Shown in pieces: positions 17,055 to 50,203 of a DNA stretch of 64,000 nt. Positions within the stretch are counted from its first letter, which is position 1. Each line of letters starts with the position of its first letter. Source of the DNA: Candidatus Daviesbacteria bacterium (GTDB lineage: Bacteria; Patescibacteriota; Microgenomatia; Daviesbacterales; UBA10151). Where the stretch lies: NCBI GenBank assembly GCA_016184225.1, contig JACPDA010000004.1, forward strand, positions 672,316-736,315, written 5' to 3'. A model generated the notes under the pieces. It worked only from the letters and a program-made list of their open reading frames with translations, was not told where the DNA came from and ran no database searches. The translations under genes were made by a program, and so were the position numbers.

Positions 17055-17444
17055 ATGATGAATGACCATACTTGCGAGGCAATAATTATCACCTGCATTG
17101 ATTTTAGGTTTCAGGAATACATAAATAAATGGATTGCAGAAAATTTCCGGCCTAAAACTTTTGATAGGATAGCATTTGCCGGAGGAGTGAAAAGCCTGGA
17201 TACCATCCTGGGACAAATAGAAATTGCCTACAGATTACACCATATTACGAAAGTTATTTTAATCAACCATGAAGACTGCGGGGCTTATGGGGATCCGCCG
17301 GCTGGCGGACCGGAAAAACACACAGAAGACCTAAAAAAAGCTGCTTCCCAGATAAAACAGCACTATCCTGACTTAGCAGTAGAAACTTACTATCTCCACC
17401 TGGACAGTACCTTTCAACCTATTTCAACCCCAGGGGTTGATTAG
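17055..17444 (+). CDS. short beta-carbonic-anhydrase-like protein (divergent)
   Basis: CIDFR and HEDCGA motifs resemble the beta-CA CxDxR and HxxC zinc ligand motifs. At 129 aa it is only about two-thirds of typical length. Confidence 0.3.
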   Translation: MMNDHTCEAIIITCIDFRFQEYINKWIAENFRPKTFDRIAFAGGVKSLDTILGQIEIAYRLHHITKVILINHEDCGAYGDPPAGGPEKHTEDLKKAASQIKQHYPDLAVETYYLHLDSTFQPISTPGVD

Positions 17445-18420
17445 CTTCCAACCTCTGGATTTAACCCTTGAAAAACCACTTTCATATTCTTAATATATAA
17501 AGATATGCCTTATAGAACAGTCATTCTTGCCGCAGGGGAAATTTACCACATCTTAAATAGGGGAGTAGCCGGCCTCCCCATATTTCATTCGCCCACCAAT
17601 TATTCTAGATTTATACAACTTATGGACTATTACCGATTTGCCGACACTCCTGTAAGTTTTTCTCATTTTATGAAGGTCCCTTTTGAAGAACGAAACTTAA
17701 TTTTGGATAAATTAAAGAAACAAAATAATCTGCAGGTTGAAATTTTGGTCTTTTGTCTAATGCCTAATCATTTCCATCTGCTACTAAAACAGATCACTGA
17801 AAAAGGCATCACTAATTTTATAAGCAATGTCCAAAATGGCTATGCGAAATACATCAATATTAAGGAAGACAGAGCAGGCCCCTTGTTTCAATCAGCATTT
17901 AAAGGAGTAAGGATAGAAACTGACGAACAACTACTTCATGTATCAAGATATATTCATTTGAACCCGTCGACAGGATATTTGGTGGGAATAGAAAAGTTAA
18001 TAGAATATCCTTGGTCTTCCTTACCGGATTACCTTGAAAGCGCCAATAAAAAGTTTGCTTTTGTAAGCCCCGACTTAATTCTTAGTTTCTTTGGAAGCAG
18101 AGGAAGTAGGGGGAAATATAAAGAATTTGTTTTAAATCAAGCTGAATACCAAAGAAAATTAGCTAATATAAAACATCTGGTTTTGGAATAGAAATTATAG
18201 GAATTACCAAGGGTTTGAAGCCATTCAACACCAGGGGTTGGAAGCTATGTTACTGGTTCAAATTAAAGCCAGTGATACATAAACATCAGTGAATCACATT
18301 TGTCCCACGGCCGTGGAATATTTGAAACAACTTTAGCTTGCAACCTTTCAGGTTGCCGCACACCGTGGGATATTTGAAAACTTTAGCTTTCCACACCGGG
18401 TGTGGAATCGTAAACACTGG
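17427..18420 (+). mobile_element. REPtron-like unit 1: RAYT gene with flanking family-D REPs plus a downstream REP hairpin cluster, inserted between atpC and atpD
   Basis: CAACCCCAGGGGTTGATTAGCTTCCAACC at 17427 and CACCAGGGGTTGGAAGCTAT at 18230 flank the RAYT ORF. Hairpins CCCACGGCCGTGG, GCAACCTTTCAGGTTGC and CCACACCGGGTGTGG (each preceded by TTTAGCTT) lie at 18281-18420. Confidence 0.65.
17505..18191 (+). CDS. REP-associated tyrosine transposase (RAYT)-like HUH Y1 transposase, copy 1
   Basis: HuH motif LMPNHFHLL and a downstream catalytic Tyr context (HVSRYIHLNP). Paralogous to the ORFs at 24822, 40078 and 49509. Confidence 0.75.
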   Translation: MPYRTVILAAGEIYHILNRGVAGLPIFHSPTNYSRFIQLMDYYRFADTPVSFSHFMKVPFEERNLILDKLKKQNNLQVEILVFCLMPNHFHLLLKQITEKGITNFISNVQNGYAKYINIKEDRAGPLFQSAFKGVRIETDEQLLHVSRYIHLNPSTGYLVGIEKLIEYPWSSLPDYLESANKKFAFVSPDLILSFFGSRGSRGKYKEFVLNQAEYQRKLANIKHLVLE

Positions 18421-18462
18421 TCGGTTTGAATAAACCAGTTACATCTGGTAAAATGCCAACCT

Positions 18463-18696
18463 ATGAGCAAAGAGAGTATAGTACATTGCTTGCTTGGAAA
18501 TGGGATTTGTCCAGAGGAATGTCCTCATCATGAAGTAGCTGCCAAAGTGTCAGAAAAATTAGGAGACTCATTTGAGCCTTTTTTGTCGAGGTTAGCTATT
18601 GTATTTGGAGATGGATTTATTAAAGATATAAACGTAACTCACGTAGCCGCTGCAATGGCAAGATGCGCTCTGGAGAAACCGTTAAAAGAAGGATAG
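18463..18696 (+). CDS. small hypothetical ORF (77 aa), possibly a gene remnant
   Basis: ORF only. It lies in the insertion-disrupted gap between atpC and atpD. Confidence 0.2.
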   Translation: MSKESIVHCLLGNGICPEECPHHEVAAKVSEKLGDSFEPFLSRLAIVFGDGFIKDINVTHVAAAMARCALEKPLKEG

Positions 18697-18701
18697 ATCA
18701 A

Positions 18702-20138
18702 TTACTTCAAATCTTCCGGGCCGCCGATCATGTAGAAAGCCTGTTCCGGCTTGGAATCATGCTTACCTTCCAATATTTCCTTAAACATCCTGACAGTATC
18801 TTTGATTGGTACATATTTACCTTTTCTACCGGTGAATGCCTCACCAACGAAAAATGGCTGGGTTAGCGCTCTTTGGATTTTCCTGGCCCTGGCTACTGTT
18901 AGCTTATCATCATCAGAGAGTTCTTCTATTCCCAAAATGGCAATAATATCTTGGAGATCTTTATATCTTTGCAGCACTTTTTGCACACCTACCGCCACAT
19001 CGTAGTGTTCTTGTCCCACAATGGCCGGATCCAGGGCCCTGGATGAAGAGGCCAGGGGATCAACAGCCGGGTACAGGCCCTGTTCTGTCAAAGCCCGCTC
19101 TAAGGCAATGGTGGAATCCAAATGGGCAAAAGTGGTAGCTGGTGCTGGATCAGTATAATCATCCGCCGGCACATAAACTGCCTGGACGCTAGTGATAGAA
19201 CCTTTTTTCGTGGAAGTAATCCGCTCCTGCAAGGCTCCCATTTCCGTAGCCAAGGTTGGCTGATAACCGACGGCAGAAGGGATCCGACCGAGCAGCGCTG
19301 ATACCTCAGACCCGGCTTGGGAAAACCTAAAGATATTATCAATAAAAAGCAGGACGTCTTTACCGGCCTCGTCCCGGAAATATTCTGCCATGGTGAGCCC
19401 TGTCAAACCCACCCGCAGTCTGGCCCCCGGTGGTTCATTCATTTGTCCAAATACCATGGCTGTTTTATTAATCACCCCGGAGGAAATCATTTCATGATAT
19501 AGGTCATTTCCTTCTCTGGTCCGCTCACCAACCCCGGCAAAAACCGAATAACCGCCATGTTCGGCGGCAATATTCCTAATCAGTTCCTGTATTATGACTG
19601 TTTTCCCGACTCCTGCACCGCCAAAAAGGCCGACTTTTCCACCTTTGACAAACGGGGCAATTAAATCTATAACTTTAATTCCTGTTTCAAAAACCTGGGA
19701 CTCTGTCGACTGTTCGGCAAATAAAGGAGCTGAGCGGTGGATTGGAAGCGATTTCTTTGACTTTAAAGCACCTTTTTGATCGATCGGCTCACCCAAAACA
19801 TTAAACAGCCGACCCAAAACTTCTTCACCCACCGGTACGGAAATTGGGGCTCCTGTATCCGAAACATCAGTACCCCTTCGCAACCCATCTGTAGCCCCCA
19901 TAGCTACGGCCCGGACAACTCCTTCACCCAAGTGCTGTTGGGTTTCCAGGACAAGTGCTGAGTGTTGAGTGCTAAGTGAGGAGTCTTTCTGACTTTGCAC
20001 TTTTCCCTCTTGTCCCGAGCGAAGTCGAGGGATTGCACTTTCCACTATTAATGCATTATAAATAGTAGGTAGCTTTTTTTGGTCAAACTCCACATCTACT
20101 ACTGCACCAATGATTTGTACTACTTTACCTTTGTTCAT
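18702..20138 (-). CDS. atpD: F1 ATP synthase beta subunit with N-terminal ~25-aa in-frame insertion
   Basis: Walker A GGAGVGKT and DELSEED-like region. An extra segment ([27 protein letters not shown], nt about 19949-20030) falls where canonical AtpD has about 5 residues. Confidence 0.9.
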
Positions 20139-20142
20139 AGTT

Positions 20143-49289: not shown

Positions 49290-49445
49290 CTAAAAATATC
49301 TCTAACCCATTATTGGTACAAAAAGGCTTAATTGTCAATACTTCGATTTCACTTAAAGAAATTGATACTGAGCGTAGTCGAATGTATCAAGTCCCGAGGC
49401 GCAGATACCAATCAATAATTTCCTGGCCCCAAAAAACCATAATAA

Positions 49446-49475
49446 GATTACACCCCAAGGGTGTAATCGGAGGTT
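49446..49475. repeat. REP-like element, family B (GATTACACCCCAAGGGTGTAATCGGAGGTT), upstream flank of RAYT copy 4
   Basis: Perfect 30/30 identity with the copy at 50174-50203. Hairpin ACACCC-CAAG-GGTGT. Confidence 0.9.
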
Positions 49476-49508
49476 TACATTTAAACCAGGATATGGTCTA
49501 CTAAATCT

Positions 49509-50159
49509 ATGCCTTCAAGAATTGATCCCTTGGTTAATGGGGAATATTACCATATTCTCAATAGAGGTGTGGACAAAATGAATATCTTTAAGAACTCATA
49601 CAATTTTCAAAGATTTTTAAAAACAATGCTCTATTACGAAGTACTCGGACCAAAACCCAGATTCTCCCTATTTACACCTACTAATAATTTATTGGACACC
49701 AGTAAACAGATCGTCGAGATTGTTTGTTACTGTTTAATGCCAAACCATTTCCATTTCCTGGTTAAACAATTAATTGATGGTGGTATAACTGAATTTATCA
49801 GCAAGTTAAGCAATAGTTATACCAAGTATTTCAACATTAAATATAGAAGAGTAGGACCCCTGCTACAGGGAGAGTTCAAATCAGTATTGGTAGAAAGCAA
49901 TGAGCAATTATTACACCTTAGCCGCTACATCCACCTTAACCCCTTAGTTTCAGGCTTAGTTAAAGATTTAAAAGATTATCCCTGGTCATCTTATCCGGAA
50001 TATATCGGGCTAAGCGCTCAAAAAATCTGTGCCAAAGAAATTATCTTAAACCAATTCAAATCATCAAAAGATTACCAAAGATTCGTTTTGGATCAGGCAG
50101 ATTATGGCAGGGAACTGGAAATTATTAAGCACCAGCTGATAGAGGAGGAATATAACTAG
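49509..50159 (+). CDS. RAYT-like HUH Y1 transposase, copy 4
   Basis: LMPNHFHFLV and HLSRYIHLNP motifs. Flanked by identical 30-nt REPs. Inserted within the type IV pilus locus. Confidence 0.75.
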   Translation: MPSRIDPLVNGEYYHILNRGVDKMNIFKNSYNFQRFLKTMLYYEVLGPKPRFSLFTPTNNLLDTSKQIVEIVCYCLMPNHFHFLVKQLIDGGITEFISKLSNSYTKYFNIKYRRVGPLLQGEFKSVLVESNEQLLHLSRYIHLNPLVSGLVKDLKDYPWSSYPEYIGLSAQKICAKEIILNQFKSSKDYQRFVLDQADYGRELEIIKHQLIEEEYN

Positions 50160-50173
50160 GTCGGAATTATCAG

Positions 50174-50203
50174 GATTACACCCCAAGGGTGTAATCGGAG
50201 GTT
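50174..50203. repeat. REP-like element, family B, downstream flank of RAYT copy 4
   Basis: Identical to 49446-49475. Confidence 0.9.

Follow-up and report, generated by a model that had tools for sequence, protein, structure and literature searches.

REP-associated tyrosine transposases (RAYTs) and the repetitive extragenic palindromes (REPs) paired with them are known mainly from Proteobacteria and Cyanobacteria. The described systems closest to the locus reported here are the terminal inverted repeat-associated tyrosine transposases and their repeats (TIRYT/TIRtron; Di Nocera et al., 2013, PMC3733652), which correspond to TnpA-Y1 subclass 2.1 (Quentin et al., 2018, PMC6006769) and to the Group 1 RAYTs (Bertels et al., 2017, PMC5581495). 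In TIRYTs, terminal inverted repeats, some of them self-complementary, flank the gene; TIRYTs of one genome carry different repeats, and solo-repeat families are moderately abundant (PMC3733652). Subclass 2.1 has been reported without REP-like partners or structures (PMC6006769), and the published RAYT means are 1.3–1.9 per replicon (PMC6006769, PMC5581495). Here we analyzed a 64-kb stretch of a Candidatus Daviesbacteria contig (hereafter the window), in which four paralogous RAYT-like genes, Y1 to Y4, lie on the + strand within 33 kb, each between matching flank repeats (modules) of its own. This density, which the original prediction had called unusually high, is well above the published means, and the Patescibacteria-type origin that it had supposed is borne out by Y2, which is 100% identical to a database entry named “transposase [Candidatus Daviesbacteria bacterium].” In the reading that we consider probable, the four are long-resident, vertically inherited genes of the RAYT/TnpAREP class, each in its own cassette, and their modules are REP-type or miniature inverted-repeat (MITE)-type non-autonomous elements that are occasionally copied.

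The four predicted proteins align end to end with pairwise identities of 45–52%, and the coordinates and paralogy originally given for their genes were correct. The motifs CLMPNH[FI]H and SRYIHLNP are invariant and [WY]SS is also present in all four; the HUH motif reads NHFH in Y1 and Y4 and NHIH in Y2 and Y3, and the second motif, [FL]Q, reads LFQ in Y1–Y3 and LLQ in Y4, being invariant only at Q. The invariant catalytic-type residues (H89, H91, Y149, and N153-P154, within YIHLNP) include a single tyrosine in a Y---NP signature. By contrast, the TnpA proteins of IS200/IS605 elements (IS608, ISDra2), which share the HUH/Tyr core fold, have Y---Q and a core of ~130–155 aa, compared with 216–228 aa for the window proteins, which extend ~70 aa beyond the tyrosine. 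All four proteins score above the cut-off of Pfam Y1_Tnp, their sole Pfam match, and no C-terminal helix-turn-helix (HTH) domain (Bac_DnaA_C, HTH_23/28) was found; the IS200 models of NCBIfam gave no match. A fold search with the AlphaFold model of Y2 (pLDDT 92) returned Escherichia coli TnpAREP as the best PDB match (4er8_A, E 1.5e-6, TM 0.73, rmsd 3.4 Å over 180 columns), followed by IS608 TnpA and ISDra2 TnpA at E ~3e-4. No TnpB adjoins any of the four genes, and no TnpB family was matched by at least two of 51 neighbors in the loci of relatives; within the window, tblastn detected no further copies, fragments, or pseudogenes of the Y genes. Together, motifs and modeled structure support a RAYT-class assignment over one to IS200/IS605 TnpA, in line with the original prediction. 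In the public annotation (P0121), Y1 begins only at an internal Met and is 189 aa long, without the N-terminal YHILNRG region that is conserved in all paralogs.

Matching flank repeats stand at all four genes (Table 1), and each paralog has a private flank sequence that differs from those of the other three. The units of Y1, Y2, and the left end of Y3 consist of a hairpin, a spacer of ~8 nt (TTAGCTT in Y1, AATAGNTT-like in Y2), and a third arm repeating the 5′ arm of the hairpin; modules are 35–45 nt long for Y1–Y3, and the Y4 flanks are without a third arm. At either end of Y1 and Y2 the third arm faces the gene, standing 3′ of the hairpin at the left and 5′ of it at the right, so that the complete modules form terminal inverted repeats whose tip is palindromic. 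Such inverted repeats are clear in Y1 (26/32) and Y2 (third arm plus spacer), partial in Y3, and absent in Y4, yet the hairpin loop reads alike on the + strand at both ends. The direct copies originally described therefore hold for the hairpin cores in the window and not for the full modules of Y1 and Y2. Likewise, the different palindrome assigned to each gene holds as a matching repeat at all four, with the qualifications that the right hairpin of Y1 carries a mismatch and that the Y3 element is non-palindromic. When flanks were folded as single-stranded DNA and compared with shuffled sequence (z-scores in Table 1), the hairpins of Y4, whose perfect repeat was confirmed, were far stabler than shuffles, and those at the left ends of Y1 and Y2 were moderately stable. 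The third arm can also pair with the 3′ arm of the hairpin, and at the left end of Y2 this alternative is the predicted minimum-energy fold. Promoter-like −35/−10 pairs, identified as consensus matches only, end 6–8 nt before the ATG of Y1, Y2, and Y3 and overlap the left module. An Rfam search of the window found one tRNA only and no known RNA family at the hairpins.

Table 1. Genes, flank modules, putative promoters, and further hairpin elements in the 64-kb window (window positions; z, folding z-score).
Feature	Position	Strand	Evidence or remark
Y1, RAYT-like Y1 HUH gene, 228 aa	17505-18191	+	Pfam Y1_Tnp, motifs, 71% ortholog in L213
Y2, RAYT-like gene, 223 aa	24822-25493	+	Motifs, Pfam, 83% ortholog in L081, structure model
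Y3, RAYT-like gene, 222 aa	40078-40746	+	Motifs, Pfam; same site in all strain-level contigs
Y4, RAYT-like gene, 216 aa	49509-50159	+	Motifs, Pfam
Y1 left module: hairpin CAACCCC-A-GGGGTTG, tag TTAGCTT, third arm CCAACCTCTGG	17422-17458	+	z = -2.4; conserved in L213 and L215
Y1 right module: third arm, spacer, hairpin CAACACC-A-GGGGTTG with one mismatch	18212-18243	+	26/32 inverted match to left; z = -0.15
Y1 flank repeats, direct	17423-17439 vs 18224-18240		16/17
Y1 flanks, inverted match	17422-17453 vs 18212-18243		26/32
Y2 left module: hairpin TTCCGATCC-C-GGATCGG, spacer, third arm CGATCCGG	24763-24800	+	z = -2.1; 50/52 in L081
Y2 right module: third arm CCGAATCG, spacer, hairpin as at left end	25510-25545	+	Repeat match, conservation in L081
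Y2 flank repeats, direct	24763-24779 vs 25527-25543		17/17
Y3 left module: right-type unit plus inverted arm TGACACCCCGGTA	40002-40057	+	Part of a longer imperfect hairpin, z = -1.7
Y3 right repeat, non-palindromic	40749-40786	+	35/38 direct copy of 40002-40039; z = 0
Y4 left element: 10-bp-stem hairpin GATTACACCC-CAA-GGGTGTAATC plus CGGAGGT	49446-49475	+	z = -5.6
Y4 right element: direct copy of left	50174-50203	+	30/30 identical; z = -4.5
Promoter-like TTGAAA-17-TAATAT, ends 8 nt before Y1 ATG	17468-17496	+	Consensus match only
Promoter-like TTGACG-17-TAAACT, overlaps Y2 left module	24787-24815	+	Consensus match only
Promoter-like TTGACA-17-TATTAT within Y3 left module	40043-40071	+	11/12 promoter consensus match
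Solo Y2-type full right-type module between convergent genes (PheT end, ORF 1366-3921)	1323-1358	+	
Solo Y2-type module, 45 nt (NTSFRSGIGIDLRSG), in-frame in TyrRS/TrpRS-class gene 27884-29035	28750-28794	-	
Tandem tag + hairpin cluster just downstream of Y1: TTTAGCTT-GCAACC..GGTTGC, TTTAGCTT-TCCACAC..GTGTGGA	18296-18410	+	
Tagged CCCAC..GTGGG element in-frame in PheT (KLASHSSTPIKSGSSGN)	574-620	+	11-aa gap in solved homologs there
24-nt CCCAC element in-frame in atpG (MASHIGSGN)	20717-20742	-	
Intergenic tagged CCCAC..GTGGG element	25933-25958	+	Related hairpin at 25581-25607
Tagged CCCAC..GTGGG element in-frame in DNA polymerase III delta′-like ORF	55936-55982	+	
Tagged CCCAC..GTGGG element in-frame in MurC (LASHIGSGN)	58947-58972	+	Absent from MurC of relative P0248

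By motifs and length, compared with Table 1 of PMC6006769, Y1–Y4 appear to fit TnpA-Y1 subclass 2.1 (Bertels Group 1, TIRYT) and not the canonical GTAG-REP RAYTs. Shared with TIRYTs are the NH[YF]H / FQ / Y[IV]HLNP / SS motifs on ~220–240 aa, low copy number with diverged paralogs per genome, terminal inverted repeats around the gene (some self-complementary), a repeat of its own for each paralog, as in K. versatilis with its three TIRYTs, and solo-repeat families that are only moderately abundant. The window proteins differ from TIRYTs in having no distal HTH (Bac_DnaA_C-type) domain and in reading NHIH in two of four cases. The GGGGWSAS motif is found at none of the four genes and in the repeats of 3 of 78 family genes (2.6% expected), which is chance level. 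The hairpin tip and mirrored third arm of the modules are undescribed for TIRYTs, and the host, Patescibacteria, lies outside the published surveys. Subclass 2.1 as a whole has been reported as REP-less, whereas the window genes carry hairpin modules. Subclass 2.4 RAYTs (PMC6006769) offer a different parallel, a gene with its own hairpin in frame inside it, which occurs in other Patescibacteria loci but is not seen in the four window genes, and their protein motifs differ.

The closest structural match, E. coli TnpAREP (RayT/YafM; subclass 2.2; Ton-Hoang, 2012; Messing, 2012, PMC3479197; 4er8), is also a single-copy, host-like gene between cognate hairpins that occur elsewhere as dispersed extragenic copies. 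Its sequence identity to the window proteins is 13%, however, and the window hairpins are without the GTAG foot, are short and perfect rather than bulged, often flank the gene in the same orientation rather than as inverted REP pairs, and have far fewer solo copies. Canonical GTAG-REP REPtrons (2.2, 2.4, 2.5, 2.7, 2.8) differ in the same sense, the hairpin cores in the window being direct and not inverted in the manner of REPINs. The proteobacterial REPtron architecture put forward in the original prediction thus has to be given up in favor of a motif fit to subclass 2.1/TIRYT: GT[AG]G occurs at the foot of 2 of 118 family flank hairpins and at the 5′ foot of none in the window.

The four genes belong to a large family. 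At least 566 relatives were found in species-representative genomes, nearly all of them Patescibacteria with a few in archaeal metagenome-assembled genomes (MAGs), and the clade comprises 430 clusters at 50% identity (E ≤ 1e-30). Only 8 of 72,556 plasmid records and one phage record contain a family member, the plasmid ones at 37% identity at most. For 78 family genes with full flanks, the match between own upstream and own downstream flank exceeded the 99th percentile of mismatched-locus controls in 50 cases in direct and in 49 in inverted orientation; a matching flank bracket is a family-wide trait, present in about two thirds of these Patescibacteria genes. Left hairpins end 10–45 nt before the ATG and right hairpins begin 0–25 nt after the stop, their sequences vary from gene to gene, and the commonest 5-mer just inside the left hairpin is TTGAC. 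Of the 45 genes whose two sides share a hairpin, 20 have the loop in direct and 15 in inverted orientation, so the family follows no rule of direct orientation. Members of the Y4 clade always have one and the same loop at their two ends, in direct orientation, even where genomes differ by a flip of the loop (CAA in the window vs. TTG in L018, L020, and L022; CGA in L016 vs. TCG in L017), so the two ends change together. No paper connecting Patescibacteria genomes with REP or RAYT emerged from our literature search; in one preprint, a K07491 match is simply listed for an archaeon.

Some members of the family carry their own flank hairpin in frame within the gene, at aa ~52–66 in L028, L032, L052, L058, L074, L077, and L079 and at aa ~160 in L039, L068, and L074; these sites fall in a variable loop that either precedes the HUH strand or follows the Tyr motif. 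Two archaeal MAG contigs with a family member (41–45% identity) are L027 (Bathyarchaeia), with a hairpin on both sides, and L044 (Nanoarchaeia), in which only the upstream hairpin was found; they could reflect transfer between ultra-small bacteria and archaea, or a binning error. Pairs of family genes within 2–10 kb of each other occur in six other Patescibacteria loci (L016, L035, L058, L060, L067, and L074), and members within one stretch are always on the same strand (4/4 in the window, 6/6 pairs elsewhere). A replication-strand bias was considered as the reason for this co-orientation and dropped, as over 65 loci gene orientation was unrelated both to GC skew (28 negative, 36 positive) and to gene-strand bias.

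Evidence that modules move comes from the hairpin type of Y2, which has two extra copies in the window. One of them lies in frame within a gene for a tyrosyl/tryptophanyl-tRNA synthetase (TyrRS/TrpRS)-class enzyme. The TyrRS ortholog in a second Daviesbacteria genome, L081 (GCA_900218215.1), is 81% identical and is without exactly these 45 nt (15 codons), and the insert matches the right Y2 module of L081 at 36 of 37 positions, spacer and third arm included. Because the insert is missing from the ortholog and is so like the Y2 module, it was inserted after the lineages split, leaving the frame intact. By this sequence comparison, one module family, the Y2 type, is demonstrably mobile and has moved since the two Daviesbacteria lineages diverged. 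Of the several co-existing, possibly active mobilization systems originally envisaged, this is the one family for which the claim stands, and of the palindromes expected elsewhere, the window holds the two Y2-type solo copies. Beyond the window, extra module copies outside Y genes occur in ~7 of 55 related loci, which indicates low-copy families, as reported for TIRYT repeats. A metagenome scan with the Y2 17-mer returned at least 120 stretches, mostly high-GC chance matches, and a known relative was not among the matches listed; the scan is unsuitable for copy numbers. Among the matches listed, the three-arm unit with the Y2 hairpin was found in ~12 low-GC metagenome contigs, 11 of them without a Y gene, and of all the stretches listed (at least 120) only L200 carries one.

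Inheritance of the cassettes was followed for Y1 and Y2 by synteny and dN/dS comparisons with L081 and with a further Daviesbacteria genome, L213 (GCA_016183265.1). The neighbors of Y1–Y4 are housekeeping genes. The Y2 ortholog in L081 is 83% identical and the gene order (atpB, Y2, a 522-aa protein, TyrRS) is kept; dN/dS for Y2 is 0.061, compared with 0.05–0.09 in its neighbors, and its dS (~1.3) equals theirs. The two Y2 modules are 50/52 and 34/35 identical to those in L081 while the synonymous sites of the region are saturated (dS 1.2–2.2). Y1 lies in a variable island that splits the ATP synthase operon (16605-24629, − strand) between atpD and atpC and holds Y1 and a Pro_CA_2 gene on the strand opposite to the operon; the same island in related genomes holds other genes, e.g., CDCA, glyoxalase, or a response-regulator-like ORF. 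In L213 the Y1 ortholog (71% identical) again lies in the atpC-atpD variable island, adjoining atpD, with dN/dS of 0.113 against 0.056–0.115 in neighbors and a dS equal to theirs. Its module is conserved in L213 and L215, with covariation in the stem from CCCC/GGGG to CACC/GGTG. In exact-protein look-ups of neighbors, Y1 and Y3 were found at their sites in every strain-level contig, with no empty site among these contigs. As part of our favored explanation, the cassettes probably behave like host genes and not like hopping insertion sequences (ISs). The claim that each paralog has its own element is upheld by the private flanks and their conservation with the gene in orthologs, which points to a putative cognate pairing of protein and hairpin.

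In each cassette the outermost element is a hairpin; in Y1–Y3 it leads into a short, often TAGCTT-like spacer and then the third arm, and the opposite end of the gene shows the mirror image of this order. If the four genes are indeed resident RAYT-class genes, their modules would remain almost unchanged beside them and would now and then be copied to new sites, also in frame into essential genes. By analogy with the biochemistry of TnpAREP and IS608 TnpA, the enzyme would bind its cognate hairpin on single-stranded DNA, cut beside it by means of an HUH-bound metal and the tyrosine, and rejoin the strands, whereby the module would be copied or replaced. The left module and the −35 box overlap, which suggests autoregulation: protein bound there would probably repress its own promoter.

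Several observations weigh against this explanation. Within the 64 kb, solo copies are missing for the flank types of Y1, Y3, and Y4. The right Y3 copy shows no fold (z = 0), so the Y3 element is a direct repeat and not a palindrome. REP_Tyr_transpos (NF047646), which is the sole NCBIfam match of Y1–Y4 and as such favors the RAYT class, gives 48–56 bits, under the 80-bit cut-off of what is an equivalog model for proteobacterial-type proteins. A sequence-only PDB search yielded weak matches in which ISDra2 TnpA was about level with TnpAREP, and being too weak to tell the two apart, it made the fold search necessary. Finally, Y1 is absent from the equivalent island in L081, as if the cassette could move, and the hairpins are subterminal and on the same strand at both ends, which is the sole IS200-like trait.

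These last two points keep some weight on the reading that each cassette is a tnpA-only IS200-type IS with the hairpins as its ends, the whole gene moving by single-strand “peel and paste” and the copies being old insertions. On the coding strand the hairpin cores have the same orientation at both ends of all four cassettes. Cassettes also sit inside operons against the direction of their neighbors (between atpD and atpC and inside a pilus cluster), and there are several paralogs per genome, with two copies in each of the six other loci. We nevertheless regard this reading as unlikely. The proteins have Y---NP instead of Y---Q and a C-terminal tail, and a fold nearer to TnpAREP. The window holds no identical or near-identical copies and no TnpB, the strain contigs offer no empty sites, and inverted hairpins are nearly as common as direct ones across the family. 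Syntenic orthologs under housekeeping-like dN/dS, with dS as in their neighbors, are likewise not what such an IS predicts.

A very unlikely reading, in our view, is that the hairpins are regulatory DNA or RNA signals (operator, terminator/insulator), with other copies being unrelated look-alikes or ordinary terminators and nothing being mobilized. Their fixed positions relative to ATG and stop, the −35 box in or beside the module, the strong conservation of modules in orthologs, and the paucity of solo copies (extra copies in ~7 of 55 loci) would all suit signals of this kind. A plain signal does not account for the TyrRS insert, Y2-like through spacer and third arm and missing from the ortholog, nor for three-arm units in unrelated contexts of other genomes or for hairpins at both ends of the gene and, in other lineages, within it; a T tract, moreover, is missing after most right-end hairpins. 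A host role in processing hairpin-forming single-stranded DNA, e.g., at replication forks, with dispersed modules as substrates or by-products, appears similarly remote: purifying selection as strong as on the ATP synthase genes, the wide vertical inheritance of the family in reduced genomes, and a three-fold enrichment of the window in perfect hairpins (45 vs. 16.2) speak for it, whereas orientation, unbiased in 65 loci with respect to both GC skew and gene strand, speaks against it, and a private hairpin per paralog fits cognate recognition better than general repair.

On the interpretation of resident RAYT-class genes with occasionally copied modules, the locus shows a Patescibacteria clade pairing such genes with private hairpins, and the TyrRS insert offers, for one case, direct evidence from genome comparison of a module entering an essential gene and leaving it unbroken. 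The four pairs within 33 kb are a tractable set of cognate pairs for the hairpin choice of Y1-type enzymes, and module copying offers a concrete mechanism for some odd protein insertions in ultra-small bacteria. A more far-reaching proposal, which we put forward as possible but tentative, is that Patescibacteria harbor a large undescribed RAYT-class clade whose modules of tag, hairpin, and third arm are still copying and are recurrently inserted in frame (TyrRS, PheT, MurC, AtpG). If this were true, a MurC hot spot, described below, would hold different hairpin alleles in different Daviesbacteria, RAYT-like enzymes would drive the lineage-specific protein insertions typical of reduced genomes, and the joint change of the loop at both cassette ends would reflect enzyme-mediated module replacement, a step undescribed for REP systems.

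The window also contains a second family of elements, in which [TC]TAGCTT or TGGCTT is followed by CCCAC-loop-GTGGGAA. Four essential genes have such an element in their sense strand, each time in the frame that gives (L/M)ASH...SGN. Six CCCAC..GTGGG hairpins were observed in the window vs. 0.33 expected. Their architecture resembles that of the Y1 module (TAGCTT + CCAACC...), and no cognate gene for them lies in the window. The atpG hairpin was rejected as an insertion, since the gene shows no length difference from two orthologs. Short palindromes lying in frame in essential genes, in a stop-free frame, are reminiscent of Rickettsia palindromic elements (RPE) and intragenic REPs (Ogata, 2000; PMC3733652), whose known targets include tRNA synthetases; here, unlike RPE, there is a candidate cognate enzyme gene in the same genome, and the tag is TAGCTT-like and not CGTC.

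The CCCAC element in MurC coincides with a 6-aa gap in solved MurC homologs, and its site (58941-58979, after “HL”) is a hot spot among 22 Daviesbacteria orthologs. ASHIGSGN is found there in six (the window and five others), ASHSSSGN in two, and ACNLKGY... in three, two of these with ACNLKGYRTN; the insert is absent in three of the 22, including the relative P0248. The ACNLKGY... allele would be a reading of a GCAACC-type hairpin. A second polymorphic MurC insert of 13 aa (VVPKFRNSEKMVP, ~59994-60035) is encoded by a long palindrome, GGTACCAAAATTTCGCAATAGCGAAAAAATGGTACC, with a dG of -13.4 kcal/mol.

In the tandem cluster downstream of Y1, the units are separated by ATATTTGAAA(C)AACTTTAGCTT, and one unit, TTAGCTTGCAACCTTTCAGGTTG, recurs at 62242-62264, antisense and in frame inside an 835-aa ORF (60150-62657). 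Across the window, 10 of 26 [TC]TAGCTT sites are followed by a hairpin, compared with a 13% background (p = 1e-3), and eight of the ten were judged convincing tag + hairpin sites, all on the + strand. Counting as perfect those hairpins with a stem of at least 7 bp, at least three G-C pairs, and a loop of at most 9 nt, the count of 45 for the whole window compares with 16.2 ± 3.0 in block-shuffled sequence.

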